A stretch of DNA of 64,000 bases. Origin: an uncultured Verrucomicrobiota bacterium. Lineage in GTDB: Bacteria > Verrucomicrobiota > Verrucomicrobiia > Limisphaerales > UBA8199. The position numbers and the translations under genes are program-made. The notes beneath the pieces are model-generated. The model was not told the origin of the DNA. It saw only the letters and a program-made list of their open reading frames with translations, and did not search any database. This document shows positions 878 through 50,090 of this stretch, one piece after another. Positions within the stretch are counted from its first letter, which is position 1. Every line of letters begins with the position of its first letter. The DNA is taken from positions 5,899,296 to 5,963,295 of the forward strand of contig OW818681.1 of the NCBI GenBank assembly GCA_942493075.1, written 5' to 3'.

Positions 878-3291
878 ATTGGGCACTGTTGTTAAACAGC
901 CTGGGCGTCGCTCTCCTGGCCACCGCGGGTGCGGTGATTGCCGGATTCGCGGCAGCCCTCTTCGCGCTTGCATGCGGTCGGCGCATGCGCTTCGCACTCT
1001 GTGCTTGTGGGGTCCTGGTTCTGGTGCTGCCTCCGTTTCTTGTGGCAAACGCGTGGCTGCACTACTTTGGTTTGAACGGGGCATGGCGCGGCGTGCTGCC
1101 ATTCAATGTGCTGACTTTGCCCGGCACAGCGTGGGTGTTGATCCTGCTTCTCTGGCCGATCACTTTCCTGCTTGTTCTTGCCGGGTGGCGACAATTGCAC
1201 CCAGTCCACTTCGAGAGCGACCCTGCGGTGCGCGGTCGATACCTGCTCCAGGCATTGTTAATCCCGTTCGCGGGTCCTGCCCTGGGTTGGGCGACCGTTA
1301 TCACCCTTGTGCTGGCCCTGAATCAGTTCACGGTGCCGGCTCTGTTACAGACCAAGGTGCTACCCGCTGAGATGTGGGTGCGCTATAACACGGAACTGGA
1401 TGCTTTGGGCGCGCTACGCATGAGCCTGCCCTTAATCCTTGGTCCCCTTGTCTTGCTTTTCTGGGTGCGACAGAAACCCGTGCCCTGGAAACAAACCCGG
1501 GAAGAGTTAACTCCGGCAACCGTGCGCCGCCAGTTAGGTGCAGTTTGGATCGGATTGGCATTCGTGATCACGGTGCCAATGATTGCGCTCTCGCTCGGAC
1601 TGCCCCTGTTCCAGATTCTATCCGCGCCGCGCACATGGATAGAGCTGCCGATGACTCTGGCGGCGGCCAAGGTATCGCTCGCGCACTCATTCCTGTATGC
1701 ATTGGTCGCCGCTACATCGTGCACGTGTCTCAGCTTGCTCGTTTGGCATCGGATGGTGCGCGGGTTCGCGTGGCTTCTGTTTCTCATCCCTGGAATGCTG
1801 CTGGGGCTTGGGCTGATCCGTTTGCTCAACACCTCATGGACAGGGTTGCTTTTTCAAACACCGCTGCTTGTATTGATCGGGCTGACGTTACGTTACATCG
1901 CGCTTCCAGCCAGCGTGCTGGCCGCTCAGGCGCGGCGCATTGATCCGAGAATCCTTGATGATGCACGGCTCCTTGGATTAAGCCTGCCGCAGCGCATCCG
2001 GCACGTCTATGCGCCGTCGTTGGCAGGTCCTGCCCTCGTGGTTTGGTACTGCGTGTTTCTCCTGTGCTTGTGGGACGTGGAAACCGCTTTGCTCCTGATT
2101 CCGCCCGGAGGCGAAACAGCGGCCTTGCGTGTGTTCAACCTGCTCCATGCCGGTTATAGCGCCCAGGTGAATGCCCTGTGCCTGGCGTTGCTGGCACTGG
2201 GGCTCTTGCCGCTGCTTTTCGTTCTAGTCGCCACGGTGATCTCCGGTGGTAAGCGTCGCATGAGCCTGCTCCGCTGGCTGCCGTTGATCCTGGCCACCGG
2301 GATGGCGGGATTGATCAGCGGTTGCTCGAAACCCCTTTCCTCTCAGTCAGCGCCGTTGGAGAGCCGTTTCTTCACGGAGGCTTCGGTGATCGCCTCGCGC
2401 GGTGCCGGTCCAGGAGAAGTCAACAAACCGCGCTCGGTCACGGTGGGCACGGATGGGGGGCTGTACGTGGTGGATATGACCGGGCGTGTGCAAAAGTTTT
2501 CTAACACCGGATCGTTCCTGAAATCGTGGCAGATGGAAAAGACGGACTTGGGCCGACCGAAAGGCTTGGGTGTGGACCGTGAAGGCAACATCATGGTGAA
2601 CGAGCCCCATTATTCGAAGGTCAACCATTTCACCACGGACGGCGCGCTGACGGTCCGATGGGGCGTGCACGGGACCAATGATGGGCAACTGGCGTTTCCG
2701 CGGGCGGTGGCGGTGAACTCGCGCAACGAAATCTACCTGAGCGAGTATGGCCTGGTAGAGCGAGTTCAGCGGTTCAGTTCTCGCGGGGAGAAATGGTTGG
2801 GGACCTTTGGTACCGCCGGATCAGCTCCGGGTCAGTTCAACCGTCCCGAAGGTCTGTGCATTGACCGGCAGGACCGTGTGTATGTGGCTGACTCGTGTAA
2901 TCATCGAATCCAGGTGTTCGACATGGACGGCAGGTTTCTGCATGCCTATGGCTCGGCAGGCACCGGGTTGGGGCAACTCAGTTATCCCTACGATATTTGT
3001 GTTGATGCGCAGGGGTTCCAGTTCGTCTGCGAGTTCGGCAACAGCCGCATTCAGGTGTTCGATCCGGAAGGCAAGCCGCTCGAAATCATAGGCGGACCGG
3101 GCCTGGCTCCTGGCCGATTTAACAATCCCTGGGGAGTAGCGCTCGATGGCTCAGGCAATCTGTATGTGGCGGATGCGTTGAACCATCGGGTGCAGAAACT
3201 GATCCGGCGTATCGGTGTGAGCCAGGCCCCTTCACAGCCAGGGCTTGCAGTTGAGCAGATCGCCTCACGCCGTGTGGGAGCCCATTCATGA
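874..3291 (+). CDS. Two-domain FbpB-like ABC permease (~460 aa, about 12 TM) fused in frame to a lipobox-bearing NHL-repeat beta-propeller (~340 aa).
   Basis: The N-terminal half is hydrophobic and permease-like. An internal Met at 2260 starts MSLLRWLPLILATGMAGLISGCS, a classic lipoprotein signal with lipobox ISGC. This is followed by NHL repeats (YVVDMTGRVQKF, VYVADSCNHRIQVFD, LYVADALNHRVQKL). No stop codon separates the two parts. Confidence 0.7.
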   Translation: MNWALLLNSLGVALLATAGAVIAGFAAALFALACGRRMRFALCACGVLVLVLPPFLVANAWLHYFGLNGAWRGVLPFNVLTLPGTAWVLILLLWPITFLLVLAGWRQLHPVHFESDPAVRGRYLLQALLIPFAGPALGWATVITLVLALNQFTVPALLQTKVLPAEMWVRYNTELDALGALRMSLPLILGPLVLLFWVRQKPVPWKQTREELTPATVRRQLGAVWIGLAFVITVPMIALSLGLPLFQILSAPRTWIELPMTLAAAKVSLAHSFLYALVAATSCTCLSLLVWHRMVRGFAWLLFLIPGMLLGLGLIRLLNTSWTGLLFQTPLLVLIGLTLRYIALPASVLAAQARRIDPRILDDARLLGLSLPQRIRHVYAPSLAGPALVVWYCVFLLCLWDVETALLLIPPGGETAALRVFNLLHAGYSAQVNALCLALLALGLLPLLFVLVATVISGGKRRMSLLRWLPLILATGMAGLISGCSKPLSSQSAPLESRFFTEASVIASRGAGPGEVNKPRSVTVGTDGGLYVVDMTGRVQKFSNTGSFLKSWQMEKTDLGRPKGLGVDREGNIMVNEPHYSKVNHFTTDGALTVRWGVHGTNDGQLAFPRAVAVNSRNEIYLSEYGLVERVQRFSSRGEKWLGTFGTAGSAPGQFNRPEGLCIDRQDRVYVADSCNHRIQVFDMDGRFLHAYGSAGTGLGQLSYPYDICVDAQGFQFVCEFGNSRIQVFDPEGKPLEIIGGPGLAPGRFNNPWGVALDGSGNLYVADALNHRVQKLIRRIGVSQAPSQPGLAVEQIASRRVGAHS

Positions 3292-9655: not shown

Positions 9656-9817
9656 TTCAGTCGCCCAAGATGCCCTTTGGAGCGGAAAAAACCCAATTAA
9701 AAATAAACTCGGGGGACAAGTCCAAGTCCTGATTTCAATTTGTCACTTTCGAAGAGGCCATTCATCTTCCTCGCAACTGCTGCCTTGTGATCGCAGGAAT
9801 GCCGACCGAACAGTGAT

Positions 9818-9945
9818 CCGTACTGTTGGTAACTGCGCGTTCCATTTGATGTCATTCCTGGTGGTTCCGGTTTGCGCCACAAAGGCGCAAACCGGAACCA
9901 CCAGGAACTTTTCTGTTTTAAGCCTAGAGGTTACCAACAGTACGG
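9818..9945. repeat. MITE-like palindromic element, copy 1: terminal inverted repeats CCGTACTGTTGGTAAC/GTTACCAACAGTACGG around a long internal hairpin.
   Basis: Inverted termini are visible directly. The internal stem is CCTGGTGGTTCCGGTTTGCGCC-acaaa-GGCGCAAACCGGAACCACCAGG. Confidence 0.6.
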
Positions 9946-10106
9946 AATTGCCAGGCACATCTCCCGGTGTTTGGGCCTTCTACCGCAAGGGAAGGCATCG
10001 AAATCCAAAGCCTCACCCGCTTCTAATCACACCCGTTTCGAACACAACGAACTAATTTTGCTTGATACCCTGCCACTGCCCGCCATGCTTTCCCCATTCT
10101 GTTATC

Positions 10107-11024
10107 ATGAATGCAACCCGTCTCTTCGTACTCGGTTCCCTGGCTCTCACTCTTTTCGCACCAGCGCTCCTGGCTCAGACCACCAATCCTCCTGCTCAGC
10201 CTTTGCCCTGCGAATACGAAAAGCTCTCATCCCCAAAGTTCCTCCAGGCCTTGGAAAAATCCGCCTACACTTGCGTTATCCCATTCGGGATCATGGAAAA
10301 GCACGGGCCCCACCTGCCGCTGGGAACCGACCTCATGCAGGTGCGCGAGATGTGTCTGCGCGCGGCCAAGCAAGAGTATGCCATCGTGTTTCCACCTTAC
10401 TATTTCGGACAAATCAACGAGGCAAAGCATCAGCCGGGCACCATTGCCTACAGCAGCGAACTCATCTGGAAACTACTTCAGGAGACCTTGGACGAACTCG
10501 CGCGCAATGGAGTGAAGAAGATCGTTATTGTGAACGGCCACGGCGGCAACAACGACTTCCTCCGATTCTTCAACATGGCGCAATTGGAGAAGCCTCGCGC
10601 CTACTCTCTGTTCCTTGTGGATCCATGGAATGCTGAGATCTACGCCGCAGTCCAGCCCAAGCTGAAATCCACAATGCCCGGCGGCCATGCGGATGAGACG
10701 GAAACCTCGATGGTCATGGCGCTTCACCCGGAACTCGTAAATCTGGAAGAAGCCAAAACGGAATCGGGAGCCGATCAGGCGAAGCTGAGCCACTTCAAGA
10801 ACGTCAGCACACCGCTCGATTGGTATGCCGGGTACCCCAATCATTACTCCGGACAAGGTTTCAACGGGAGTGTTGAACTGGGCGAGTTCCAGTATGGACT
10901 GCATTCGAAGGTCGTGGCAGATGCCATCAAGCAGATCAAAGCCGACACCAAGGTGCAGGAGTTACAAAAGGAATTCTTCAGGAGCAGCACCGCACCGTCC
11001 GCCAAGAAGCAAGATGGCAAGTGA
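10107..11024 (+). CDS. Creatininase-family amidohydrolase (creatinine amidohydrolase-like), secreted. The ORF is open from 10062.
   Basis: Signal peptide MNATRLFVLGSLALTLFAPALLAQ, plus HGGN and HADETETS metal-binding motifs of the creatininase family. Confidence 0.7.
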   Translation: MNATRLFVLGSLALTLFAPALLAQTTNPPAQPLPCEYEKLSSPKFLQALEKSAYTCVIPFGIMEKHGPHLPLGTDLMQVREMCLRAAKQEYAIVFPPYYFGQINEAKHQPGTIAYSSELIWKLLQETLDELARNGVKKIVIVNGHGGNNDFLRFFNMAQLEKPRAYSLFLVDPWNAEIYAAVQPKLKSTMPGGHADETETSMVMALHPELVNLEEAKTESGADQAKLSHFKNVSTPLDWYAGYPNHYSGQGFNGSVELGEFQYGLHSKVVADAIKQIKADTKVQELQKEFFRSSTAPSAKKQDGK

Positions 11025-11077
11025 TTATTGGCCCGATGACGGGGAGCTTCTTTGACAGGCTGAACAGGAGTCTTCCG

Positions 11078-12379
11078 TCACGTCATCAACCGACACTCCT
11101 GCAAGCGCCTTTCCAGCAGCGAGCGCTCGACAGGTGTACAGGAGAGTTCCATGGCGCGCTGGAAGTGCGCCGCAGCGTCCTCATACCGGCTCGCCTGCGC
11201 CTCGAACTCGCCCATAGAGGCGTAGAGCAAATGGTAGGACTCCAGGGGCTGGCTTTTTAGCAGGGACCGAATCTCCTTGATGGCGGCCTCAGGCCCACGC
11301 ACGTGCGCCACCGCCACCGCACGGTTCAAAGCAACCACCGGTGACGCGTTCATCGCATAGAGTTGGTCGTATAGCACGAGGATGCGGCTCCAGTCTGTGG
11401 ATGCGGAATCGCGAGCCATGGCGTGGCAGGATGCTATGGCTGCCTGCAAATGGTAGTCGGATATCTCAGCACCCTCTGCCGATTGCGCCATATGGATCAT
11501 TCCACGCGCAATGAGGGATCTGTCCCACAACGAGCGATCCTGCTCATGCAATCGGAGCAAGTTGCCCGCAGCATCCAGGCGGGCCGGCAAACGCGAGGCG
11601 TTCAGGCACATCAATGCCAGTAGCGCATGCGTGCTTGGCTGGTCGCCTGCCGGATGCCGCGCCAACAACTCACCCAACCGGATGGCTTCTTCGCAAATAT
11701 CTTCACGAATGAGGAGATCGCCGGTTGAGGCCTTGTAACCTTCATTGAAGAGCAGATAGAGCGTCTGCCGCACGGTTTCCAGACGCGGCTCAAGCTCCGG
11801 GCCAGCCGGAATTTCAAAACGCACTTGCTCTTCGCGCAGCGTCTGCCGCGCGCGAGTCAATCGTTTAGCGATCGCGGCTTCACTCGTAAGAAACGCCCGG
11901 CTGATCTCCTCTACCCCAAAACCGCACAAGGTCTTAAGCGCAAGGGCCACTTGCACCTCTCCGGACAGCGCCGGGTGACAGCACGCGAAAATCAACCGCA
12001 ACCGGTCGTCGGCAATTTCCTGATCAGAGATCAGGGTGTCGTCGCCGAGGTTTGACTCCTCTATCAGCGCGGTAATCTCCGGTTCCTTTTCGCGGAAGGT
12101 CTTCTTGCGGCGCACAGCGTCCAGAGCCAGGTTGCGTGCGACACGCATGATCCAGGCGGACGGATTCTTCGGGACGCCGCTGAACGGCCATACTTGAAGT
12201 GCTTTGGCGAGTGCCTCCTGAACGACGTCCTCCGCCAATCCCAGGTGTTCGATCCCAAAGATGCGTGTCAAGGTCGCCACCATCTTGCCCCATTCCTGGC
12301 GAAACAGATGCTCGAGGGTCAGGGAAATGTCCCCTGACCCGCGCGATGCATCCACTTCGTTGAGGCTTTGGGTGCTCAC
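11078..12379 (-). CDS. ECF-type sigma-70-like factor with a long C-terminal TPR/helical extension (COG4941-type).
   Basis: N-terminal sigma region 2 and 4 motifs (VQEALAKALQVW, ISRAFLTSEAAIAKRLTRAR), then a ~230-aa helical extension. It is encoded with DUF1428 and YciI-like genes. Confidence 0.75.
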   Translation of the reverse strand: MSTQSLNEVDASRGSGDISLTLEHLFRQEWGKMVATLTRIFGIEHLGLAEDVVQEALAKALQVWPFSGVPKNPSAWIMRVARNLALDAVRRKKTFREKEPEITALIEESNLGDDTLISDQEIADDRLRLIFACCHPALSGEVQVALALKTLCGFGVEEISRAFLTSEAAIAKRLTRARQTLREEQVRFEIPAGPELEPRLETVRQTLYLLFNEGYKASTGDLLIREDICEEAIRLGELLARHPAGDQPSTHALLALMCLNASRLPARLDAAGNLLRLHEQDRSLWDRSLIARGMIHMAQSAEGAEISDYHLQAAIASCHAMARDSASTDWSRILVLYDQLYAMNASPVVALNRAVAVAHVRGPEAAIKEIRSLLKSQPLESYHLLYASMGEFEAQASRYEDAAAHFQRAMELSCTPVERSLLERRLQECRLMT

Positions 12380-12747
12380 TTAGCCAACGATTCCACGATC
12401 ACCTTGAACCCGCCGTAAAGCATGCGCGAGCAATCGAACGGCATGTCCTTCGAACCGCACATTTCCTGGATTCTCGGATCTGCCATCACCGCCGCGTTTA
12501 CGCGATCCCTGTGAGCGCGTGATTTGTAAACAATCCACGCGAGCACCACGGTTTCATCGGGCTTGAGCTTCAGTCCCTTTGGAAAGGGCAAGCCCTGGGA
12601 TACCTCCAGGTCGTCGCCGACGCATTCCCGGTATTCCAGAGCGCCATGTTCTCGCCAGATCTTCGCCCCCTTCTGCGCCATGCGGCGGTAGGCGGCTAGA
12701 TTGGCCTTCGGCATCGGCAGCACAAAACCATCAATGTAGTTAGGCAT
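12376..12747 (-). CDS. DUF1428-like small protein
   Basis: 123-aa ORF whose stop overlaps the sigma gene start by 4 nt. MPNYIDGFVLPMPK is a DUF1428-type N-terminus. Confidence 0.55.
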   Translation of the reverse strand: MPNYIDGFVLPMPKANLAAYRRMAQKGAKIWREHGALEYRECVGDDLEVSQGLPFPKGLKLKPDETVVLAWIVYKSRAHRDRVNAAVMADPRIQEMCGSKDMPFDCSRMLYGGFKVIVESLAK

Positions 12748-12778
12748 AACTCAGATCTCCTGTAATCTGCGTGAGCCG

Positions 12779-13201
12779 CTACACAGCTTGAGCGGTTTCC
12801 ATCTCCCGGCGCGCTTCAGATCGCACGGTGCATTCCTCGGCAATCGGCCGCACTTCAACGATCGCCCCGTAAGGCAGCCCCGGACATTCCTTCGCGATTT
12901 CCACCGCTTCCTCCAGCGTGTCGACCTTCAACAGGAAGTAGCCTGCCACCGCTTCCTTGGTTTCCGCATAAGGCCCATCGGAGACCGTTTGGCGTTTGCC
13001 ATTCCCGATAACGACGCGGGAATCACGCTCCAGCGGGTTGCCCCCGATCGCTTTGCCCGCTGCATTCAGCCGTTCAAACCATGCCATCCACTTGGTGGCG
13101 ATCTGCTGCATTTCCTCCGGGGAAAGTCCTTTATGCCAGTCCATGCCGCGGAACAGCAGCAAACATCCGTTTTGGGTTCGTGTATTCATATCTTTGCTCA
13201 T
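12779..13201 (-). CDS. YciI-like (DGPF/COG3795) protein. The ORF is open to 13264, but the start is more likely at MSKDM.
   Basis: GYFLLKVDTLEEAVEIAKECP is a YciI-like fold signature. This is the canonical partner of COG4941 sigma factors. Confidence 0.6.
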   Translation of the reverse strand: MSKDMNTRTQNGCLLLFRGMDWHKGLSPEEMQQIATKWMAWFERLNAAGKAIGGNPLERDSRVVIGNGKRQTVSDGPYAETKEAVAGYFLLKVDTLEEAVEIAKECPGLPYGAIVEVRPIAEECTVRSEARREMETAQAV

Positions 13202-13439
13202 GTGATTTTGCTTTTGTTTCAACCTGTCATTCCTACGACGAATCAGGCCGCTAAAAAAGGACACGCCACCCTCAAAAACCCAAACAGCCCGGCGAACTCC
13301 GGAACGAGTGAAGCACGACTTCTCAACATTCGCATTGCCTATTCACAGTAACACTTTCTCTGATACTGGCCACATCGAATTTATTCCTCGTGGACGCGAA
13401 GTCTCGTTGAAAAGCGGGTAAGCAACGCAGTATGTAAAT

Positions 13440-13990
13440 TCAAAGCAATGATAGATCATCCAGATGTCTGAAGAGGTGGCCTACTAGGAGACTACACCGA
13501 AGGATCCGGGTCCTTTCCCTGCCCTTCTCTTGTCCCGGCAGGGACTCGTGATAATAGCCCAATGCTTTAGCATTGGGTGCTTGACATAATAGCTCCAGAG
13601 TCCCGCAAGGGACGGCTGAACTGTCACTCCCACAAATACTTCGGAGTATGATCTCAAGACTGGACATGGCCGTGCTCAATCGTTCCTTCGGAACTAGGTC
13701 AGAATCGAACACTGCCACCCAAAGCTGAAGCATTGGGCTTTTCTCAACTGTCCCGCTGGGACAGGAACGAGGCGTTCCGGCTGATTGTCGAAACCTCCAC
13801 AGATGACTCAGAAAATGTGCAGGCTCCCACTGATTCACTCTCACGACGGCGTCAACTGTCGATGCTCCGTATTCTGGGCAATTGGTAAACGATGACTTTG
13901 GCCAGCTTGGCCTCACCCACTCCTAATTACGCCTGGGACACCCTGGCACTCGATTACAGAACCCACCCCCCCCATTCCGCGCTTTTGTTC
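13440..13990. ncRNA. Candidate structured non-coding RNA or hairpin-repeat region of unknown identity.
   Basis: No credible ORF over ~760 bp (13265-14036). There are three GUCCCG-N3-4-GGGAC hairpins and two copies of CCCAAWGCUKNAGCAUUGGG. C(UUCG)G tetraloops occur at CUUCGG 13648-13653 and 13687-13692. Confidence 0.25.
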
Positions 13991-14036
13991 CAGGCGGTTT
14001 TCACAGTAGCCTCTTCCCCCGTCCGGAAAAATTTGT

Positions 14037-14501
14037 ATGCACATCGTCCTGGTCGAACCGGAGATCCCGCCCAATACGGGAAACATTGCGCGCCTTTGCG
14101 CCGCCACGCGCACGACACTTCACTTGGTGGAGCCGCTCGGCTTTCGTGTTGACGACACCACGCTTAAACGGGCGGGAATGGATTATTGGAAGATGGTGGA
14201 ATGGCACCGATGGCCGGATTGGACGGCATTCCGCGCGCAGGTGACACCTGGCGCCACTCTTTGGTTCATCGAATCGGATGGCCCCAGGACTTATGCCGAA
14301 GTTCAATTCAAGCCAGATGATTACCTGGTGTTTGGACGCGAGACGGCTGGCTTGCCGCCCAGCCTGTTTCAGTCTGACCCGGAGCATTGGTTGCGAATTC
14401 CCATGGCAAACACGCCCGCGCGTTCGTTGAATTTATCCAATTGCGCGGCCCTGGTGCTCTATGAGGCGCTCCGGCAAACGGGTTTTTCCGGAATGAAATA
14501 G
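14037..14501 (+). CDS. trmL: tRNA (cytidine/uridine-2'-O)-methyltransferase TrmL (SpoU/TrmH family)
   Basis: MHIVLVEPEIPPNTGNIARLCAAT...SLNLSNCAALVLYEA. Confidence 0.8.
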   Translation: MHIVLVEPEIPPNTGNIARLCAATRTTLHLVEPLGFRVDDTTLKRAGMDYWKMVEWHRWPDWTAFRAQVTPGATLWFIESDGPRTYAEVQFKPDDYLVFGRETAGLPPSLFQSDPEHWLRIPMANTPARSLNLSNCAALVLYEALRQTGFSGMK

Positions 14502-15395
14502 TTAGCGCGGGAATAGGCTGAGGGTATCGAGCACCGCTTTAACCTTGGCCACCTCGTGGGTGCGGAAGAGATCAGTCCGGCCCAGGGACGCGAGCATGGC
14601 GAAGAAAGGTTCAGCGCAACGAACTTCATCACCAAAGTACTCAAACGCATGCGGCAAGGCATGACATGTTGGCCACCCCAGAGTGCGCAGCCGGAACGTG
14701 TTTAAGAATACATCCATCTGATGGCGCACACGCACGCCGCTGTCTTGCAGGTTCCGGTAGTAAAAACCCAGGCCAGGATCGATGAAGATTCGCTTTACGC
14801 CGCCGGCGACCGCCAAATCGATTTGCCGCGCGAAATGCTCCTGCATCATCGCCACGGGATCAGATGTGAAAGAAAAATCGCCCACGGCGCGCACGTGCTC
14901 CCCTTGCACATAACAGATGATCACGGCGGCATCATGATCCGCCACCATCCGGTAGAGATCCGAGCTGCTGGGTGTGCCGGTCAGGTTGAGAATGTTTGCC
15001 CCTGCTTCAAGGCAGGCGCGCGCGACTGTGGGTTCGTAGGTTTCAACTGACACCAAAACGCCCCGGGCGCGCACCTCCCGGATCACGGGCAGCAACCGGG
15101 AATTCTGGAGGTCCGCATCGGAACGAGCGGCGTGGGCCAGAGAGGATTCAGCACCGATATCGATGATAGCTGCCCCTTGCTCATGGAGCACACCGGCGCG
15201 TTGAATGGCGCTGCTGGTGGAAAGACAAACACTCTCGCGATACCAGGAATCGGGAGAAAGATTAACCACACCCATGAGCGCCGGGCGGGCATTGCCGTCA
15301 AAGGAATGGCCAGCGATATCGAAGGCCTGCACGCGTGCGCGGGCTGCTTCGGGGTGTTTCGCCAGCAATCCAGCCAGATATTCCAATGAGAGCAT
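14502..15395 (-). CDS. folP: Dihydropteroate synthase
   Basis: Pterin-binding DHPS motifs (GVVNLSPDSW, IIDIGAESS, IFIDPGLGF). Confidence 0.85.
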   Translation of the reverse strand: MLSLEYLAGLLAKHPEAARARVQAFDIAGHSFDGNARPALMGVVNLSPDSWYRESVCLSTSSAIQRAGVLHEQGAAIIDIGAESSLAHAARSDADLQNSRLLPVIREVRARGVLVSVETYEPTVARACLEAGANILNLTGTPSSSDLYRMVADHDAAVIICYVQGEHVRAVGDFSFTSDPVAMMQEHFARQIDLAVAGGVKRIFIDPGLGFYYRNLQDSGVRVRHQMDVFLNTFRLRTLGWPTCHALPHAFEYFGDEVRCAEPFFAMLASLGRTDLFRTHEVAKVKAVLDTLSLFPR

Positions 15396-15813
15396 TACGG
15401 TTTATGTAAACCAGGAAGGGGCAATGCTCAATGCGGAATGTTTAGCTGGCTTTGGTAGGGCGGCATTGCCAAGGCCGCCGTCCCCGAACACCACTGACAC
15501 CTCCCTAAGGCCTGATTTAGATTTGTCACCCTTAGAAGATCATTCATCCATGCGGGGTCTGAGACTCAAATGCAGGCATGCTGTTCGAACCGAAATCATT
15601 ACTGTTGGTAGCCGCCGCCCCTTTTGATTCCACCCTGTTGCATCGTCGCGTCTGCGTGATGATTCTTTGGAGGTTTGCACCCTCAACTCCTCCTTACAAG
15701 CTCCCAGCTCCCACTTTGTAACAGCATATTCCTTGTCTCCCACCCATCCACTTATACACTCACAAGCGAGTATCCTGTATGGCATAAAACTAACGACTGG
15801 GTTCACTTAGGCT

Positions 15814-16332
15814 ATGAGACGCAAGAAATCACGCAGGACCTCGCGGCAAACGTCGGACGAGTCGCGCCTTTCCCGTGGCCGCATCCGGACCGATGCCATC
15901 TTTCCCGTCGCCCCCGCTGTTGCATCCCTGCCGAAAGGTTACGCCGCCACACTTCAGGCGATAAAGACCCACCTCAGCAGTGCCCGCATCCGTGCGGTTC
16001 TCGCCGCCAACCCGATCGTCATTGAGGCCTACTGGCAAATTGGCAAGCTAATCCTCGCTCGCCAAACCGATGCCGCATGGGGTGCCAAAGTTATCGACCG
16101 ACTGGCCGCCGACCTCCAGGAAGCATTTCCAGACATGGGCGGACTGTCGTCGCGCAACCTGCTGGCCATGAAGGTTTTCGCACGCGAGTTCCCCGATGGG
16201 CCAATTGCGCAACAGCCTGTTGCGCAATTGCCGTGGGGCCACGTCCTGCAGATCATGCAGCGCTCCAAGGACCCTGCCGCCCGCGATTTCTACATCCGCG
16301 AGACCCTTACCCATGGCTTCTCGAAACATTAG
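15814..16332 (+). pseudogene. Truncated DUF1016 (YhcG-like, PD-(D/E)XK nuclease family) N-terminal fragment. The C-terminal nuclease domain is missing.
   Basis: Matches DUF1016 N-terminal region (IEAYWQIGKLI..., HVLQIMQRSKDPAARDFYIRETLTHG). It stops about 170 aa short of full length, immediately before the convergent MATE gene. Confidence 0.5.
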
Positions 16333-16377
16333 GCTATTGTCAAGTGTCCGTCCCGGACACCGGAGGGGACATGCCTT

Positions 16378-17736
16378 TCAATCTTGCTGCTGTTGGACTG
16401 GCTTGATGCTGGTTATTTGCTGGGTGGCGCGAGCCCAGGCGCGAAGCAAAATGGCCGCAACCACAACCAACCCGGCAGCCAGGCCCGTCCACAGCCCCAC
16501 GACACCCCATCCGAACCCGAAGCAAAGCACCATGCCCAGCACAAGCCCGACCGGATAATGCCCGATCAGGTTGGCGATCATAGCGGTGCGAGTATTGCCC
16601 AGACCACGCAGAGCGCCTGTGGCGCTTACTTGTGTACCATCGGCAATCTGGAAAAGGGCCACGAGGATCAGAATCTTCGCCCCGAGCTCGATCACCTTGG
16701 GATCCGTGGTAAACCAGCCCAGTAGATAGCGCGGGATAAGAAGGTAGCCTGCTGCGAAAGCGCTCATGACCAGCACCGAAAGGCCTATGCACATCCACCC
16801 GGCAACGAGAGCCCGCCGTGGCTGGCCGGCCCCGATAAACATCCCCACCCGCACCGCTGCTGCGGAGGAGAAACCCAGAGGAAACATAAACGTGAACGCC
16901 GCCAGCATCAGTGTTACATGGTGTGCCGCGAGCGGAACGGCCCCCAGCGCGCCTGCCATGAATGCGGCGATGCCAAATGCACCAACTTCCAACGCCGTAT
17001 GTCCCGCAGCCGGGGCCCCGAGCTTAAGGAAGCTTTTCTGCACTCCCCAGTCCAATCGCGGCAATCGGAGTCGGACAGGCCTGAGCAAATACCAGGTATA
17101 AGCGATGGCAAATGCCAGCATGAAATAACGACAGATCACCGTAGCCCAAGCCAACCCCTTCACCTCCAGCCGGGGAAATCCCCAGTACCCCAAACCTAGG
17201 GCAAAATCTGCGCCCAGGTTCAGGACGTTCGCCCCGATAATGATCAGGCTGAACCCGAGGACCCGATGCCGAGCCTGCCAGTACCGCTGGAGCACGAAGA
17301 AGATGAACAAGCTCGGGAGACTCCAGCCAACGACCTCCAGATAATGTCGGAAAGCGATCTGCACAGGACCGGGCGGAGAGAAATGCAAGTATAGCAACGT
17401 GCCCGCCAAAACTCCGGCTGCGGACAGCACCGACACGATGAAACAGGACCAGATCGATTGGCCCAGATAACGGGCCAGGTTCTTTTCATCCCGCGCCCCT
17501 ACACACTGCGAGAAGTAGGTATCAAGTGCCAGCAGCAGCCCCATGCAAACATTGGTAAAAGTCCAATAGAAACTCGAACCAAGGCCCAATCCCGCCAGTG
17601 TTACGGTGCTGATCCGCCCGGCCACCAGGGTGTCAACCATTCCCATGGACATCTGGCCCACCTGGTTCAGTACAATCGGCAGCGCGAGCTTCAGGGTATC
17701 CCTGAACTCTATCCGCAAATTGACGGCCGATTTCAT
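16378..17736 (-). CDS. MATE-family multidrug/oligosaccharidyl-lipid efflux transporter
   Basis: 12-TM protein with MATE signatures (LALPIVLNQVGQMSMGMVDTLVAG...GALRGLGNT). Confidence 0.85.
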   Translation of the reverse strand: MKSAVNLRIEFRDTLKLALPIVLNQVGQMSMGMVDTLVAGRISTVTLAGLGLGSSFYWTFTNVCMGLLLALDTYFSQCVGARDEKNLARYLGQSIWSCFIVSVLSAAGVLAGTLLYLHFSPPGPVQIAFRHYLEVVGWSLPSLFIFFVLQRYWQARHRVLGFSLIIIGANVLNLGADFALGLGYWGFPRLEVKGLAWATVICRYFMLAFAIAYTWYLLRPVRLRLPRLDWGVQKSFLKLGAPAAGHTALEVGAFGIAAFMAGALGAVPLAAHHVTLMLAAFTFMFPLGFSSAAAVRVGMFIGAGQPRRALVAGWMCIGLSVLVMSAFAAGYLLIPRYLLGWFTTDPKVIELGAKILILVALFQIADGTQVSATGALRGLGNTRTAMIANLIGHYPVGLVLGMVLCFGFGWGVVGLWTGLAAGLVVVAAILLRAWARATQQITSIKPVQQQQD

Positions 17737-17849
17737 CCAGAAAGCCTAGAAGCTAATGTGCAAAGGCTAAAGACAAAATGGGGTGTCTCGGCTCGTTTCA
17801 CACGTCAACTCCGCTGGAAACCTATCCGTTCATAGGCTAAGATCCTCGC

Positions 17850-18950
<1,101 letters not shown>

Positions 18951-19006
18951 CGTATTCCTCCTGCTCCATTTGACTTTGCACCGTTGCGGGTCAACTTTCC
19001 ATCCTA

Positions 19007-20440
19007 ATGAGACATTTTGGATCGGTAACCTGGGCAGCTCCCATGCTTTTGGCCGGGTTGGGGCTTTTTTGCGCTCCGGCGTGGGCGCAGATGCGTGATA
19101 TTTCCAGGCTTTATCAGGAAAACTGCTCCGGCTGCCATGGTGATAATCTGGAGGGCGGCCAAACCGATTCACTTTTGGACGATACATGGAAACATGGCGC
19201 CGATGACATGAGCATGGCACGTGTTATCCGGGACGGCGCGGAGTCTGAAGGCATGCCACCCTGGAAAGGAGAGCTCAGTGAGGCGGAGATTCGCGGTATG
19301 GTGGTCTTTATCCGGGAAAAGCACGAGCAAGCTCTCACAAAAAAGACCACGTTCAATAAGCCGACTCTCAACCAGGTCACCGCGACTCAAGAGCACAAGT
19401 TCCGTTTGCGCAACGTGGCCGAAAACCTGGATACCCCGTGGTCGGTCGCGTTTCTGGCGAACGACACGCTTCTCATTACGGAGCAGAAGGGCACGCTGCG
19501 CATTTTGGAGAAGGGCAAGCTGCGCAATGAGCCGATCAGCGGCACCCCAAAGGTCCGGTATAAAGGACAGGGCGGACTTATGGATGTGGCGCCGCATCCG
19601 GGCTACGCAACCAATGGCTGGGTTTACCTCTGTTTCACTGATCCAGGGTCCAATGACGAAACCAGCGATGCCGGCATGACTGCGGTGGTACGCGGTCGGA
19701 TCAAGGATTACAAATGGACGGATGAGCAGACCATCTTCCGTGCGCCTCTCTGGACCTATCGCGGCGGTGGAGTGCACTTTGGCTGTCGCCTGGTTTTCGA
19801 TGAATCGGGCCACCTGTTCTTCCCGATAGGCGAACGCGGGCAGATGCAGGACGCCCAGAATCTCACACGTCCAAACGGCAAGGTCCACCGTGTTTTCGAT
19901 GACGGGCGGATACCGTCTGACAATCCGTTTGTTGGACAATCGAATGCGATTCCGAGCATCTGGAGCTATGGCCATCGTAATCCGCAAGGATTGGATCGCC
20001 ATCCTGTCACCAAAACCTTATGGGATGCCGAGCACGGTCCCCGCGGGGGCGATGAGCTGAACCTGGTGCTTAAGGGACGCAACTACGGCTGGCCGATTAT
20101 CACCTACGGAATGAATTACAACGGCACACCCATCACTGGGCTTACCCAGAAGGAAGGGTTAGAGCAGCCAGTTGTCCATTGGACGCCCTCCATAGCTGTA
20201 TGCGCGATCGCCTTCTATAACGGAGAGAAGTTCCCCCGCTGGAAGAACAACCTCTTCGTGACTGCTTTGGCGAAGGAGGAGCTGCGCCGCCTTGTCATTG
20301 ATGGCGAGCGGGTCACAAAACAGGAGATTATTTTTAAGGACATCGGACGCGTGCGCGATGTGGCAGTGGGGCCCGACGGCTTTGTTTACGTGGCGCTCAA
20401 CAAGCCCGATAAGGTAGTGCGGCTCGAACCTGCCGACTGA
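19007..20440 (+). CDS. Secreted fusion of a c-type cytochrome domain to a PQQ-dependent soluble sugar (glucose/sorbosone) dehydrogenase, YliI/Asd family.
   Basis: Signal peptide, then a CSGCHG haem-binding motif. After that a beta-propeller sGDH-like region ([33 protein letters not shown]). Confidence 0.75.
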
Positions 20441-21170: not shown

Positions 21171-21287
21171 ATCAAAGTAGAGGCGGGCGTCTCTTCTTGG
21201 TCTCCTGGTTGCCTCTATTCTATGTCCTTTATCCGGATCTATCCGCAGATGGCGCAGATGGCCGCCGATGAAGGCGGAGGCTTCGGA

Positions 21288-21343
21288 ATGTAGCGCGGTC
21301 GTCTCGACTGCGAGTACGGGCGGCGTCTCGCCGCCCCTTTTCC
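21288..21343 (+). terminator. Conserved box plus hairpin terminator element, copy A.
   Basis: ATGTAGCGCGGTCGTCTCGACTGCGAGT box forms CGCGGTCG-UCU-CGACUGCG. It is followed by GGGCGGCG-TCTC-GCCGCCC then CTTTT, downstream of the H-X9-DG gene. Confidence 0.45.
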
Positions 21344-21716
21344 ACTGCAAACGGTCGGATACTAACAATGTTCATTGCGTTTCAGTACTGTTTGTAGCGC
21401 AGCGCCCAACAGCACAAGCTCACCCCCGTTCAGGGGCTTCGGACAAAGACGATTTCTCGCTTGGGTGCCCACTTGACGCTCTGCAATGCGACCACGCCTG
21501 GGCAGGTTTAGTCAGACAGGGCAGGCTGATCCTGTGCCGGAATGTCCTGTGTGATCAGCATGCAGCAACTTTGCGTATACGAACGCTGATATGTCAATCG
21601 CGGAAGCATTTGTTTTGGTTCCGCCTGCGGTCTTTTTGTTCGATTGGTCGCTTGTTTGGGTTCTTGCTTTTCAGGTATTCTATCCTGGTTCGGGTCGTAG
21701 TTAATTATTCCAGGAT

Positions 21717-24494: not shown

Positions 24495-25334
24495 TTACCG
24501 ATTCCAGCCGTGGCTCTTGTATTTGGAACCGGTCGGCATCTTCTTGAATCGATCCAATGCGTTTTGCCGCCAATCCGCTCCGGCAGGTGCGGATGAGGCT
24601 GCCTCCGCACCGAGGACCTGATCCTGAACGGGCGTTGCTTCTGCGACGGGCGTTGGTGAGGTTTGGATGCTTGCGGCGGTTGCAGCCGGTTGAGTAATCG
24701 AGGCCGCGCGTGGCTGGAAGTATCCTCCTGACCCAAAGGTCGCAAGTGGTTGGGCGGATGAAGGCGAGGCCGTTTGAACGCCAATCACCGGCGGTGTGGC
24801 CGGTTGCGCTGTCTCCTCGTCCAGATAATTCCAACAAACCCGCACGGTGGATATGCTTCCTAAGTGCACCGCGATCCCGCGATATTCCAGCCCCGGGAAT
24901 TCCATTTTCTCCGAGAGCTCTTCGGCTTTAACCATGGCGGCGAGCAAGGCCTGGATTGTGGTGCGCGTTGCGTTCGCGGCCGCGAGGGCGCGGATGGTGG
25001 CACCCCCTACCTTCTCAAAGCGGTCCAACCGCAGAATGACTCTCCGTAAGGGCATGATCTCGATGTCCGCGCTGACCAATTCGTAACCGGCTGATTCGAG
25101 CACGCTGATGTTCTCGTTCACTTCGGTTACAACTTGCCCGAGACGTTCCTCGGTATCGACATTCAGACCGGTAAAGCAGGCCTGGACTTCATCGCGCAAT
25201 TCGTTCAACTGTCCAGCCGCAGCCAGGACGGATTGCCGTAGTTGCGCCGCCTGCTGCGGTGCCGCTTGCACGGCCTGGGAGAGCTGTGTCGCCCGCTGGC
25301 CGATGTTTCGCATCCGACGTGCTAGTTTGCTCAT
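24495..25334 (-). CDS. Hypothetical protein with an N-terminal coiled coil and a Ser/Thr/Pro/Ala-rich C-terminus. It is the last gene of the flotillin/giant-ATPase operon.
   Basis: 279-aa ORF on the same strand, 36 bp downstream of the 1845-aa gene. I recognise no family. Confidence 0.5.
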   Translation of the reverse strand: MSKLARRMRNIGQRATQLSQAVQAAPQQAAQLRQSVLAAAGQLNELRDEVQACFTGLNVDTEERLGQVVTEVNENISVLESAGYELVSADIEIMPLRRVILRLDRFEKVGGATIRALAAANATRTTIQALLAAMVKAEELSEKMEFPGLEYRGIAVHLGSISTVRVCWNYLDEETAQPATPPVIGVQTASPSSAQPLATFGSGGYFQPRAASITQPAATAASIQTSPTPVAEATPVQDQVLGAEAASSAPAGADWRQNALDRFKKMPTGSKYKSHGWNR

Positions 25335-25369
25335 AGATTTCCTGGGTTGCGGTTTGATTGTTTACGGCA

Positions 25370-28300
25370 TCAAGGCTGGATCTGAGGCGGCACACCGGGC
25401 GCAGGTGGTTCTTTAGGCGCTTCGGGCTGCTGCGATTGAGCCAGCACTTCCTGAAATTTTTCAAGAAACGCGCGCTCGTTCGTAAGCATTTCCTGCGTTA
25501 GGTCGATTTCCACCGTCCCTTGTTTTGCGCGGGTGGCCAGCAGTTCCTGGGCATCGCGCAAATGGTTTCGCTGCTGTACGGCCAGATCCTTCAAGGTCGC
25601 CAACGTGCTATGGATCATCTCCAACTCATGCGAAAGGCTGTTTACCTGGTCCCTGATATCGCCGGTGTGGCTCGCTGCCAAGGCGCGGCGCAACTCTTCG
25701 CCAAACGATTTTAACCCATCTCCGATATGCGCGGCGATGGAGGCTCCGGGATCTTCCTTCGGTGCCGCAGGCGCCCTGGTGGCAGCGAGGCTTTCCGCGA
25801 GTGTGGAGCGCATCGATTCCAGCTTGGTTTCCAGTGGGGTTAAATCCAGCGACAACGAAGACGGTTTGGAGAGCTGCTTCTCCAATGTCTCCTGGATGGA
25901 CTCCAGCCCTGCTTGAAATCCTGAGAGCTGGCCAACAACCCGGCTGACCGGGTCATTCTGATCAGCCCCGCGCACGAGCTGGTTGCGCTTGAACGTCTTC
26001 TTGATCTCTTCCCAACGCGCTAGCTCAGCAGCGGAGAGCTGGCCAATGAGTTCCTTGAACTTGAGCAGATTCGCCTCCGCGCCTGTTGTCAGCGTTTGGG
26101 ATTCATTCCGATAATGATCGATCAGAATCGTGCGGAGTTCCTCATCGTTCAGCACAGGCACGACTTTCTCGGCGAGCCTGTTCATATTCCGATAGGAGCC
26201 CTGCAACCGGAACGGGGGTTCGGTGCGGAACTCGTCCGCCTGGGCAGCGGAATGGATATACTCCTGATTCACGCGCAGCACCACGTTCCGAATGACCACC
26301 AGCTTCTTCATTACTGCGAGGATCTCTTCCACCTCCTGCGCCGAGTAGCTGCCTTCAAAACCTTCTGTCGGGCGGGAACCCGTCTCTGCCGTCCGGATAA
26401 ACGAGCGGATATCCTTCTGGCTCTTGTTGGAGAGCGGTGCCAGCACGGCATTCGACGTGACAGCATTTTCCAAGTAGCTGGCTTTGAACCAATCGGCGTT
26501 GCCGCCGATAATATCGCCGAGATTGTAGGTGTCAGCGCGGTTTGCGAGCATGTCCGGAATTCGGAATTTCTGGCCGCTCTCGGTGTAAGGATTGCCAGCC
26601 ATCACAACCACCAATTTGCGTCCCTTGAGATCGTAGGTGCGGGGCTGTCCCTTCCAAACGCCTTCTATCTTGCGCTGTCCATCACAAAGCGAGATGAATT
26701 TTTGCAGGAACTCGGGATTGCAATGCTGAATGTCATCCACGCAAATCATCACGTTATCACCCATCTCCAGCGCCAGGTTCAGCTTTTGGATTTCTTCGCG
26801 GGCGGCGGCGTTCGGCGCGGTCTCCGGATCGAGCGAAGTGACGCCGTGTCCGAGCGCGGGGCCGTTGATTTTTACGAAGATGATTCCCAGACGGTTGGAG
26901 ATGTACTCCATCAAGGTCGTCTTGCCGTAGCCCGGGGGAGAAATGACGAGAAGCAGTCCCATCAAGTCGGTGCGCTTCTGGTCACCGGCGGCGCCGATTT
27001 GCTTGGCGAGGTTATCGCCCAGCATAGGCAGATAGATCTCGTCGATGAGCTGGTTGCGCACAAAGGAAGTGAGCACGCGGGGTGTGAATTCCTCCAGGCG
27101 CAAGCGGGTGCGTTCACGTTCCAGGATGGCCTGTTTAGCACGTTGGAACGCCTCGTACCGGGGGACGACGTTCGTTTCAAAATGGGCTAAGCGCTCACGG
27201 AAATCGAGGTAATCGAACCGGTATTGTGTCCCGCTGACAACCGGGTGGGTACCTTTCATTCCGTCGATGGAACGGGACGTTCCCGCTTGCACGGGTGTGC
27301 GCTTCACCGCATCGCCGCAGAAGATGATGGCTGCAGCTTCTTCCAGGTAACGCTGTCCATCAGGCTGATTCAGCAGAAACCCGCGCACCCAGTCGCGGAC
27401 CAGTTCCAGCTCGCTTTCGGGATGCTCACGGAGTTCCTGGCGCGCTTTGGCAAAAGAATCTGTGCTGCCTTTTTGCAGGAGATGGCGGTTGAAGCCGGCA
27501 ACGATCTGATCCGCCTCGCGGCTGACGGCTATTGTCGTTGCGCCCGCTACGAGTTCATAGAACAGATACTCTCCAGCCGCCGCGACCAACTCCACAGGAT
27601 ACGCTTTCGCCGATTCGTTCCACTCACCAATGCGCTTGCGCAAGGCGGCGACGTAGTTGTCCTGGGTTGGGTCACCCGGGAACAGGCGGTTGCGCTCGCC
27701 AAAGCCCTTTAGCTTCGAATGCCACAAGGTCCGGGTTTGCTCCGGGGCAAACCGATGCCAAAACACCATGGCTAATGCGCGCGCGGCGGGATTGAACCTG
27801 GCGAGCTGAAGGGCCGTATGCGTGCTGAGCAGGACGGTAAAGATGCGCGCCGCATCCAGGTCGTGCACCCCTTTGGTGTAGCCCTCCTGATAGCGCGATG
27901 CCATGAAGGCCTGCACCAGGGCCAACTGCTCGGCTTCACTCTGGGCCAGCGCCTCGGTCAGCGCAGGCAGCTTAAGATCGCCATCAACAGCGTTCCGCCC
28001 CGCAGATCCGCCATGCAGCGCCTGCATCAATCGATAGGCGAGATACTCAGCCCGGTAAACGGTTTCGTTCTCTGAGATGACTTCCTGCGTCCACAAATCA
28101 CGGGACTGCTGAAAGAGCTCGTCGGTGATCGGCTCGAAATACCTGGTACTGGTCAGGTGGATGTGCTGCACACCGTCGCGGTTCACGATCGTGAGTTCGA
28201 GCGGTTGCGTATTGACGCTGAAACGGTGCTTGCCCAGGCGGATGACCGCCTGGCCATCCACGAAGAGCTCCTGGCGATCCTTTAACTGCCGGACCGCCTC

Positions 28301-30907: not shown

Positions 30908-30911
30908 ATAC

Positions 30912-33089: not shown

Positions 33090-33325
33090 AAGCTTGATGA
33101 TGTTGATTTAGGCCTGAATTCCACATTCCAAGCACGCTTTACAGCCTTGCCTGCGATGGGATTTCTGAACCAACTGCTGGGTACCAGAAACACGGAATAG
33201 ACGCCAATACAAAATCCCGGCCATTTTGGAACGCGAGGAAGCGGGTGCCCTGCGCAAAGATTCCAGGCCTGACCCCTTTGTTCACTTGCGCATATGCCAT
33301 TTTGGAGACATAAAGAACTTAGCAC

Positions 33326-33580: not shown

Positions 33581-33601
33581 GCTCTTCTCAGCAACTGGCT
33601 G

Positions 33602-33826: not shown

Positions 33827-33828
33827 AG

Positions 33829-39628: not shown

Positions 39629-39647
39629 TCTCCTTCCCGTGGGCCGC

Positions 39648-39705
39648 ATGTAGCGCAGTCGTCTCGACTGCGAGTTCGCGCACCGTCTCGGTGCGCTTTC
39701 GTTCC
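39648..39705 (+). terminator. Conserved box plus hairpin terminator element, copy B, downstream of lolD.
   Basis: ATGTAGCGCAGTCGTCTCGACTGCGAGT, then GCGCACCG-TCTC-GGTGCGC and TTTCGTT. Confidence 0.45.
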
Positions 39706-39746
39706 GAGTGAGTAGAACAAAAAGAGGAATGGCGCACTTCGCGGAA

Positions 39747-39872
39747 TCCGTACTGTTGGTAATCACGATCCGAAGGAGAGATATTCCCTGGTTTTTCAGG
39801 TTTGCGTTCCAGGGCGCAAACCTGAAAAACCAGGGTGGAGCAAGAGGTGCGCGCGCGTTACCAACAGTACAG
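39747..39872. repeat. MITE-like palindromic element, copy 2.
   Basis: TIRs CCGTACTGTTGGTAAT/GTTACCAACAGTAC. Internal hairpin CCCTGGTTTTTCAGGTTTGCG-N8-CGCAAACCTGAAAAACCAGGG. Confidence 0.6.
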
Positions 39873-40207
39873 AAAGCGATCGGTAGATGTGGCCGAGAGC
39901 AGACGCTCGCCTCCAGGATCGCCGCTTGCGGTCTTGGACTGCTGTAGTCCTACAGCTTTTTCGAAGGGCGTTTCTGCTACGAACGAAGAGATTCTCCTTA
40001 GGTCGAGCCCGGTGCCCTCGTGCGAAAAGCGGCGCTTCACGCCGCACTCCACAACGCGTAGCGCATTCGAAGCTTTGAGAACACAAGACCCGGGAGCAGC
40101 GTTCTGAAGCACGACTCGATGGAACGCATAATTCAAGCCGGTGCCACACATCGCTTGCTGCCATTCATTCGCACCATGCCAGCCGAACTGGAATCCGTAC
40201 TGTGGGT

Positions 40208-47250: not shown

Positions 47251-47536
47251 CCCGTTAGCATCTTAAAGAGCCGCCATCCGGTCAATACCGCCGGTGGGGG
47301 CATCGGGGACCCAATTCGCACGCGAGGCACCTGGTGGTGCGGCCACCTGGATCGAGTTGCCACCGGAGCTGCGGAGTTCGCGGAGAAGGGTGGAAAAATA
47401 GTACCTTATTCAGCCTTTATACTTTAGCCCTTAGCCTTTCCCCCAGCGGGCGCTCCCGCCCAATGTGTGAAAAATCCAGGATCGGGCATCGGATTGCACT
47501 CCAAACGACCGGATACCAACGATGTCCATTACACTT

Positions 47537-47661
47537 TCGTACTGTTGGTGGCACAAAGTCCTATAAAATGAACCCCTGGTTTCTCAGGTTTGCGCCAGAG
47601 TGCGCAAACCTGGAAAACCAGGGAATATTTCTTCTTCGGATCGTGATTACCAACAGTACGG
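47537..47661. repeat. MITE-like palindromic element, copy 3.
   Basis: TIRs CGTACTGTTGGTGGC/ATTACCAACAGTACGG. Internal hairpin CCCTGGTTTCTCAGGTTTGCGC-N6-GCGCAAACCTGGAAAACCAGGG. Confidence 0.6.
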
Positions 47662-47772
47662 ATTCCGCGAAGTGCGTCATTCCTGCCCCTTTGTTCAATC
47701 GTGATCGGGCATCGGATGATAGGCAGTCCCCGGTGTCCTCACCGGGCGGGTTCGCCTTTCATTCAGGCACCC

Positions 47773-50020: not shown

Positions 50021-50090
50021 AGTGGCTCCGTGGGCCGGGAACTTAATGCCACAGCACCGCTTAAAGTCAATGATTCACTCCAATAGCACC

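Follow-up and report, generated by a model that had tools for sequence, protein, structure and literature searches.

A dispersed family of palindromic hairpin repeats in an uncultured Verrucomicrobiota bacterium and its relatives

Introduction

Small repeats of the REP/REPIN, ERIC and MITE families are well studied in Proteobacteria but barely described in Verrucomicrobia. A stretch of 64,000 nucleotides from contig OW818681.1 of an uncultured Verrucomicrobiota bacterium, here called the window, raises the question of what such a repeat may look like in this lineage. A preliminary description, made from the letters of the window alone, had reported three copies of a MITE-like palindromic element of about 125 bp together with several solo terminal inverted repeats (TIRs). 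The following analysis deals with the extent of the repeated unit, the feature that is preserved in it, its distribution in the same genome and in related bacteria, and the way in which its copies may have arisen.

Materials and methods

The ORFs of the window were scanned with Pfam; some of the ORFs were named solely from the stored annotation of syntenic relatives. The related loci comprised contig L126 (ENA), which is ~97% identical to window positions 40.6-56.6 kb, contigs L127 and L133 (ENA), which are ~82-90% identical to the window, and contigs L121-124, L128 and L134-137 (JGI), L125 (NCBI) and L132 (Logan), which are ~77-84% identical to the window.

Results

Copies of the repeat within the window

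Three full copies (c1 to c3) and three fragments (s15, s21 and s40) of the palindromic repeat were found in the window, a count far greater than expected by chance, and the full copies lie at 9.8, 39.7 and 47.5 kb, exactly where they had first been placed. The copies and their parts are as follows:

9793..10002, + strand: copy c1, extended polar unit with left extension 9793-9817, core 9818-9945 and right extension 9946 to ~10002
9855..9907, no strand: central hairpin of c1 with 24-nt arms 9855-9878 and 9884-9907, 100% complementary, a 5-nt loop, then a T-rich tract
15496..15637, + strand: truncated copy s15 with upstream module, left extension, left inverted end 15597-15611 and left spacer
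21347..21414, - strand: fragment s21, right inverted end (15-mer at 21383-21397) and right extension only, adjoining module (a) at 21274-21339
39723..39890, + strand: copy c2 with left extension 39723-39747, core 39748-39872 and a short right extension
39786..39835, no strand: central hairpin of c2 with 21-nt arms, 100% complementary, and an 8-nt loop
40170..40400, + strand: rearranged copy s40, left extension and inverted-end 15-mer 40195-40209 joined to 2.1 tandem 96-nt units
47487..47686, - strand: copy c3 with left extension 47686-47662, core 47661-47537 and right extension 47536 to ~47487
47574..47623, no strand: central hairpin of c3 with 22-nt arms, 91% complementary

The 15-mer CCGTACTGTTGGTAA, which is itself non-palindromic, occurs nine times in the window with up to three mismatches, compared with 0.63 occurrences expected, and 0 of 100 shuffles reached nine. 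Both c1 ends, the left c2 end and the right c3 end carry it without mismatch, the right c2 end has one mismatch and the left c3 end three, and the termini described as common to all copies are thereby confirmed. The hairpin core GGTTTGCGC was found seven times (1.1 expected), on both arms of c1 and of c3, and the left arm of c2 reads GGTTTGCGT; the earlier statement that the stems differ between copies is correct. A search of the 64-kb window with a covariance model of seven copies, its filters switched off, recovered only the three full copies, at 120 bits (c1), 119 bits (c2) and 128 bits (c3, which aligns best with the other copies on the - strand), and the next best score was 13 bits. All copies are intergenic, as had been noted, in the sense that they lie in DNA between Pfam-supported genes and that the ORFs overlapping them are without Pfam match. 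Copy c2 starts ~10-18 nt past the terminator-like module (a) at 39632-39704, and c3 is located 270 nt upstream of ruvB.

The fragments that had been reported as solo TIRs do exist, at 15597-15611, 21383-21397 and 40195-40209, the first of them ~11 nt away from the position 15586 originally given. They are, however, truncated or rearranged copies of the repeat and not solo TIRs. Fragment s15 is cut by a deletion and is left without hairpin and without right half, s21 matches positions 119-165 of the nhmmer model, and the 15-mer of s40 is the head of a tandem unit; every 96-nt unit in the array at 40197-40400 begins with a 15-mer resembling the inverted end.

Module (a), of ~60-75 nt, was found at 21274-21339 (+), 39632-39704 (+) and 47773-47847 (-). 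It consists of two hairpins, the second followed by TTT, and is terminator-like; each time it is situated just 3' of a gene and adjoins a copy or fragment of the palindromic element, and in L127 it is present without the element.

Architecture of the repeat unit

The core of the repeat is a nested palindrome of 121-128 bp that consists of inverted ends of 13-15 bp, two spacers and a near-perfect central hairpin of 21-24 bp. The spacers have a length of ~23 nt each and do not pair with each other, 36 nt invariably separate the hairpin core GGTTKGCG from the inverted end on either side, and the inverted ends are paired in 84% of cells across nine copies. The inverted ends had been taken for the ends of the unit, but the homology among copies at unrelated loci runs beyond them for ~25-60 nt on the left and for 20-60 nt on the right. 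On the left, ~25 nt (GCAGGMATGNCG..CGAAC..AAT) are common to all full copies and two fragments, and a further 35-80 nt are common to several copies; the right extension is common to c3 and fragment s21. Between c1 and its paralogue at L138 8321-8451 the homology extends from GCAGGAATGCC to ~57 nt past the right inverted end. Since the left extension differs from the right one, the unit of ~210-250 nt has a polarity.

Two subfamilies were distinguished. Subfamily A, with the hairpin core GGTTTGCGC and ends in GTAA, comprises c1, c2, c3 and L138, and subfamily B, with GGTTGGCGC and ends in GTAG, comprises s15/L128, L126-c4, L130 and L131. The two ends co-vary by subfamily (GTAA/TTAC versus GTAG/CTAC), and the 23-nt internal loops formed by the spacers are not conserved between subfamilies. 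A long variant at L126 6717-6939 carries a 96-nt unit inserted between hairpin and right end, which itself opens with a 15-mer resembling the inverted end. This unit is the same as the tandem unit at window positions 40197-40400, which explains the supposed solo TIR at 40195.

Duplicated target sites, for which a check of the flanks had been proposed, were found at none of the copies: whichever boundary is chosen, no flanking direct repeats are present in nine copies, and the bases just outside the inverted ends (AAT on the left; AA or ATC on the right) are part of the conserved extensions and not a duplicated target. The designation as a MITE-like element holds as far as a dispersed, non-coding, palindromic family is concerned, but not with regard to the conserved flanks past the inverted ends and the missing target-site duplication.

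Folding and compensatory changes

As single strands, the cores gave folding z-scores between -8 and -12, both as DNA and as RNA and for either strand (c1, -12 as DNA and as RNA; c2, -9.3; c3, -8 to -10). In the central helix of nine copies, 10 of the 24 pairs are changed on both sides, one position being occupied by four pair types. Pairing is kept in 93% of cells of the nine copies, compared with 27-41% in controls with partners shifted by 1-3 columns; the observed covariation score was reached by none of 500 shuffles. The peptides of the extra copies described below imply the same compensatory change, CCGG/CCGG to CTGG/CCAG. In a seven-copy alignment the hairpin mismatches, located mostly at helix ends, are eight G-T and four A-C and show no strand bias; the capacity to form the hairpin is therefore preserved symmetrically on both strands, and it is this capacity that is the preserved trait.

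The strand symmetry fits selection at the DNA level better than strand-specific selection on an RNA. Single-stranded DNA, cruciform extrusion or template-switch repair likewise fit better than a strand-specific RNA or a protein operator. Template-switch repair can also maintain perfect palindromes without any selection.

Distribution in the genome and in related bacteria

Copies of the repeat are dispersed over at least 12 unrelated loci in the window, on the same contig and in relatives. A further copy, covered by the ORF P0373, is located on the same 6,534,777-bp NCBI contig as the window and differs from c1, which makes it a separate locus in the same genome; other copies were found in the related Verrucomicrobia L126, L128, L130, L131 and L138. 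These additional copies run against the first ground for refutation that had been given, an absence of further copies. The RuvB of the window is identical to protein P0001, which is encoded on this 6,534,777-bp contig, and RuvB homologues place the window in Verrucomicrobiota. The comparison of the translated element with 1.84 billion representative proteins yielded five spurious ORFs over further copies. One of these is P0373, and another, P0371, led to L138, where a c1-like copy ~88% identical to c1 over element and extensions lies at an unrelated locus. A scan of metagenome contigs in which one end and the hairpin core were required returned only L130 and L131, and the same kind of scan requiring both exact 11-mer ends gave 0 matches. 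The bare 14-mer CGTACTGTTGGTAA returned 120 matches in genome contigs, all of them single, unrelated chance matches.

The covariance model gave 0 matches in 20 unrelated genome pieces, which included other PVC bacteria, and no matches to the element were obtained in plasmid and viral contig collections. Rfam 15 contains no family that matches at gathering thresholds, and at E<=1 the element obtained chance hairpin matches only (SNORA69, mir-224). The density of full copies is 3 per 64 kb in the window and 2 in 21 kb in L126, compared with 1 in ~80 kb in a ~80%-identical relative, all of these being small numbers; extrapolated from the local density, there would be ~300 copies per genome.

Inheritance, decay and rearrangement

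The copies are vertically inherited over long periods. An orthologue of c3 is present at L126 9545-9709 with 92% identity, compared with ~97% in the flanking DNA. The s15 locus has an orthologue in L128 (~77-83% identical), and a different part has been lost in each lineage: L128 has kept spacer, hairpin, right end and right extension, its left part being replaced by other sequence, and the window has kept the left part, having lost 164 nt to a deletion bounded by 8-nt direct repeats (TTGCATCG). From this orthology with differing losses it follows that the family is older than the split at ~80% identity and decays in place.

Besides decaying by deletion, the copies exchange halves and modules and are situated in regions of indels and rearrangements. 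Copies c2 and c3 have a collinear block in common, composed of the terminator-like module (a) and the left half of the element, with 88-91% identity; their left halves are 89-91% identical and their right halves, with the right spacers, are unrelated. This combination indicates that recombination between copies and segmental copying are part of the dynamics, and the c2/c3 pair, as judged from its sequence, looks like a segmental or recombinational copy and not like a jump of the 125-bp unit. That all copies lie within one larger duplicated segment, a possibility raised at the outset, is not the case: c2 and c3 have their block in common, but c1 is without a block common to c2 or c3.

The genes that adjoin c1, c2 and c3 on one side vary from relative to relative. 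Copy c3 is absent from L127 and L121, though neighbouring modules are in common, and the 1056-nt intergenic region of c2 is absent from L132, L133 and L134, in which an ABC transporter gene is followed by hflX. A clean empty site was found at none of the orthologous loci of c1 (L128), c2 (L132, L133, L134) and c3 (L127, L121), which have different gene neighbours or diverged intergenic DNA.

Several structural differences between the window and related contigs were recorded. Between the ~97%-identical genomes of the window (50083-50086) and L126 (6496-7103) there is an indel of 608 nt; direct repeats (TTAGCCTTCAGCC... and GCGCNCTACCAC) delimit the extra block of L126, which is built of several repeated modules, one of them a long copy of the element, so that the indel is multi-module, and its boundaries are not clean. 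A 9-kb segment of the window (~10000-18960, from a creatininase gene to a radical-SAM gene) is inverted relative to L128 (JGI), with one breakpoint in the intergenic region of c1 and the other in a repeat-free 57-nt gap (18950-19007). Window positions 40566-40610 and 47930-47976 contain, within a module of ~47 nt, an inverted stretch of 38 nt with 100% identity. The synteny with the 97%-identical L126 starts inside the 40.6-kb copy of this module, which places a rearrangement or gene-conversion junction within that repeat.

A block of ~590 nt at window positions ~13375-13975 is absent at the orthologous site of L128. It holds an imperfect palindrome of 239 nt (13528-13766), the arms of which match Rfam Acido-Lenti-1 weakly (24-26 bits; gathering score 37), and a 71-nt piece (13734-13804) is found again at the end of contig L132, which is unrelated; the block may be a second mobile or RNA element. 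Just downstream of c2, at 39922-39971, lies a terminator-like module of 50 nt (GCTGTAGTCCTACAGC then TTTTT), which is also present at L128 5066-5117, upstream of a gene for an IS110-family transposase, and downstream of the copy covered by P0369.

Gene context

Full copies are located 100-270 nt upstream of the start codons of unrelated genes, and the flanking genes have functions without relation to each other (creatininase, ruvB, Na+/H+ exchanger, DUF1016 protein, CAAX protease, VWA protein). In regions with tandem genes the orientation of the unit equals the direction of transcription for c2, c3, L126-c4, L130 and probably L131 and is opposite for fragment s21, a co-orientation in 5 of 6 cases that is weak (p ~0.1); the divergent intergenic regions of c1, s15/L128 and L138 give no orientation information. 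The hairpin of c1 with its T-rich tract scored as terminator-like on the + strand, c1 being located between divergent genes, and the full hairpins of c2 and c3 failed the terminator scan.

The three intergenic regions with full copies yielded no sigma-70-like promoter, either within the copies or next to them. Together with a by-eye match to sigma-54 and ECF patterns that was unconvincing, this led to the rejection of a promoter reading. An ATG in the left extension opens an ORF of 39-72 aa across some copies, but this ORF is unconserved; a coding role was rejected on account of a stop at codon 6 in c1, of frameshifts in L131 and s15, and of stem changes that are non-conservative in the protein. 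Integron attC sites, retrons, CRISPR and LexA boxes were also considered and rejected on account of the lack of an adjacent integrase or RT, misfitting core sites and wrong spacing.

Transposase search and other elements

The absence of a transposase from the window, as first described, was upheld by the Pfam scans of the window ORFs: the only mobile-element proteins are two reverse transcriptases of group II introns. Near the copies in ~230 kb of related DNA, the only candidates were an IS110 gene at 8 kb from the L128 copy and a remnant of 22 aa in L130, and no IS with matching ends was found in the scanned window ORFs, the ~230 kb of related loci, or the plasmid or viral collections. The L130 copy is flanked by a gene for a group II intron RT and by an ORF (476-1891 and 2516-3129) and lies ~110 nt upstream of the candidate remnant SRKLRIEYPGASYHVLNRGN, which forms the first 22 residues of this ORF and is fused to a WG-repeat protein. 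This remnant, which we take to resemble the N-terminus of IS200-like Y1 transposases, is too short and gave no Pfam or NCBIfam match, and no motif of the SRKLRIEYPGASYHVLNRGN type was found in the window or in the related loci L121-L131.

The two group II introns are arranged in tandem on the - strand (58014-60066 and 60111-62163), are 99.85% identical over 2053 nt and are separated by 44 nt. Their RT/maturase ORFs extend over 58094-59965 and 60191-62062, and Rfam matches were obtained to group-II-D1D4-6 (100.8 bits) and Intron_gpII (42.8 bits). On the same strand, a gene cluster at 24495-35689 encodes a DUF3686 ('ATPase involved in DNA repair') plus AAA protein of 1845 aa, proteins of 725 aa and 267 aa without Pfam match, and ExbD- and ExbB/MotA-like proteins. 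PADLOC returned only a weak LmuB match for this cluster (E 2e-5), which may represent an uncharacterised membrane-coupled system.

Discussion

The palindromic repeat is a new, lineage-specific family, and as a small non-coding repeat it belongs to a known kind, REPINs, ERIC elements and MITEs being closest to it. REPINs are REP doublets that form hairpins and are mobilised by RAYT Y1 transposases, and they have conserved inverted ends, with spacer length and hairpin capacity kept by compensatory changes (Bertels & Rainey 2011, PMC3116915). The repeat resembles them in its size of ~100-130 nt, its two highly conserved inverted ends, the constant length of its spacer and a hairpin preserved by compensatory changes, and also in being intergenic and vertically inherited, with truncated singlets as decay products, tandem clusters and no internal transposase. 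Unlike in REPINs, the ends are non-palindromic 13-15-mers; by the criteria of PMC3733652 they are no REP stem-loops, which carry a GTAG or CGTC tag. A GTAG end is found in subfamily B only, and there the tag is 22 nt away from the nearest stem. Further differences are the single long central hairpin between two unpaired 23-nt spacers in place of one continuous hairpin, the asymmetric extensions, and the fact that no RAYT gene flanked by copies was seen, the sole hint being the 22-aa remnant in L130.

REP-type repeats are documented in Verrucomicrobia, where GTAG-tagged families have been reported in Opitutus terrae, and REP dimers can be nested in larger palindromes (Di Nocera et al. 2013, PMC3733652). 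The modules found here miss the stem-loop definition of GTAG/CGTC REPs (5-13-bp stems directly abutting the tag), and the unit is larger, with inverted ends at a fixed distance. As in BIMEs, the intergenic regions are composed of several short repeated hairpin modules in varied order and orientation.

In size and behaviour the ERIC elements are the closest analogue. ERIC or IRU elements of enterobacteria are imperfect palindromes of ~127 bp without transposase, which form longer variants by internal insertion; their copy number differs from one related genome to the next, and effects that depend on orientation have been suggested. The repeat shares with them the near-equal size, the imperfect nested palindrome, the intergenic location, the long variants by internal insertion, the variable copy number among related genomes and the lack of an encoded transposase, but its sequence is unrelated and it belongs to another phylum. 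The Correia/NEMIS elements, which are MITEs of Neisseria, have TIRs of 26 bp at their true ends and a TA target duplication. Like them, the repeat has terminal inverted repeats, is small and non-coding, has many intergenic copies and is tied to rearrangement; it differs by the lack of a duplication, by homology past the inverted repeats and by having no known parent IS.

On these grounds the repeat is probably, in our assessment, a lineage-specific, non-autonomous hairpin family of REPIN/ERIC/MITE-like type, with single-stranded hairpin DNA as the form in which it is maintained and probably also moved. The form that is selected or propagated would be the single-stranded DNA hairpin, and an enzyme whose gene lies elsewhere in the genome would produce new copies in trans, candidates being a Y1/HUH transposase (RAYT or IS200-like) or a DDE transposase that binds the ends. 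Homologous recombination between copies would also contribute, and recombination together with segmental duplication could by itself explain part of the spread. Host-level roles as terminator, insulator or mRNA hairpin are possible from the sequence features but would be secondary. A bolder variant, which we regard as doubtful, is that the repeat represents a Y1/HUH (RAYT or IS200-like) substrate of an architecture undescribed for REPINs and hence a new structural class, vertically inherited and also shaping transcription units. According to this variant, a long covarying hairpin is placed 36 nt from two non-palindromic inverted 15-mers, and the extensions provide a polarity aligned with the downstream gene.

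Several other explanations have to be weighed against this. The repeat could be a classical MITE, that is, a 125-bp internally deleted IS whose 15-bp TIRs are bound by a DDE transposase encoded elsewhere and which moves by cut-and-paste with target-site duplications. The inverted ends are indeed conserved far beyond chance and co-vary by subfamily, the element is small, non-coding and dispersed, and the 608-nt indel polymorphism between L126 and the window carries one copy. Nevertheless, none of nine copies is flanked by direct repeats, the homology continues 25-60 nt past both ends with a left side unlike the right one, an IS with such ends was found neither in the window nor in the related loci, and a protein that binds the ends leaves the compensatory change in the central hairpin unexplained, so that a classical MITE is unlikely. 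The opposite extreme, a chance resemblance or a single segmental duplication without any family, can draw on the collinear block of module (a) and left half in c2 and c3; it is scarcely credible, since the shuffle statistics exclude chance, the flanks of c1 differ, and independent copies are present at other loci of the same genome and of relatives.

Explanations based on a function for the host were considered as well. A cis-acting element that is co-transcribed with its neighbours, either as a terminator or insulator cassette or as an mRNA-stabilising or processing hairpin, and that has spread owing to its usefulness before genes, would account for a unit with polarity that matches the direction of transcription in 5 of 6 informative regions, for full copies 100-270 nt upstream of start codons and for the terminator-like score of the c1-subtype hairpin with its T-rich tract. 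This explanation is improbable in view of the weakness of the co-orientation (p ~0.1, with three divergent regions uninformative), the variation of the two 23-nt internal loops between subfamilies, mismatches without strand bias, the lack of sigma-70-like promoters in or beside the copies and the functionally unrelated neighbouring genes; moreover, c1 is situated between divergent genes, where there is nothing to terminate. Far less probable still is that the inverted 15-mers or the central palindrome are operators of a dimeric regulator and that the copies mark its regulon. The palindromic sequences do stand upstream of genes, in one case upstream of ruvB, and TACTGT...ACAGTA is presumably reminiscent of the LexA-box half-sites of E. 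coli. However, instead of being adjacent the two 15-mers are ~100 bp apart, compensatory changes alter the central stem although a protein-binding site would keep its sequence, relatives have the same genes without the element, and fragments and long variants are tolerated.

The hairpin family favoured here is tractable, as it has clear subfamilies, orthologous copies that can be traced across lineages of 97%, 90% and 80% identity, visible decay, module swapping and an association with changed gene neighbours and indels. Repeats of this kind break short-read assemblies and mark hot spots of genome rearrangement; they also give rise to spurious ORF calls, of which five are present in public protein sets. 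If the enzyme that copies the repeat were identified, the REPIN/RAYT or MITE picture would be extended to the PVC superphylum.
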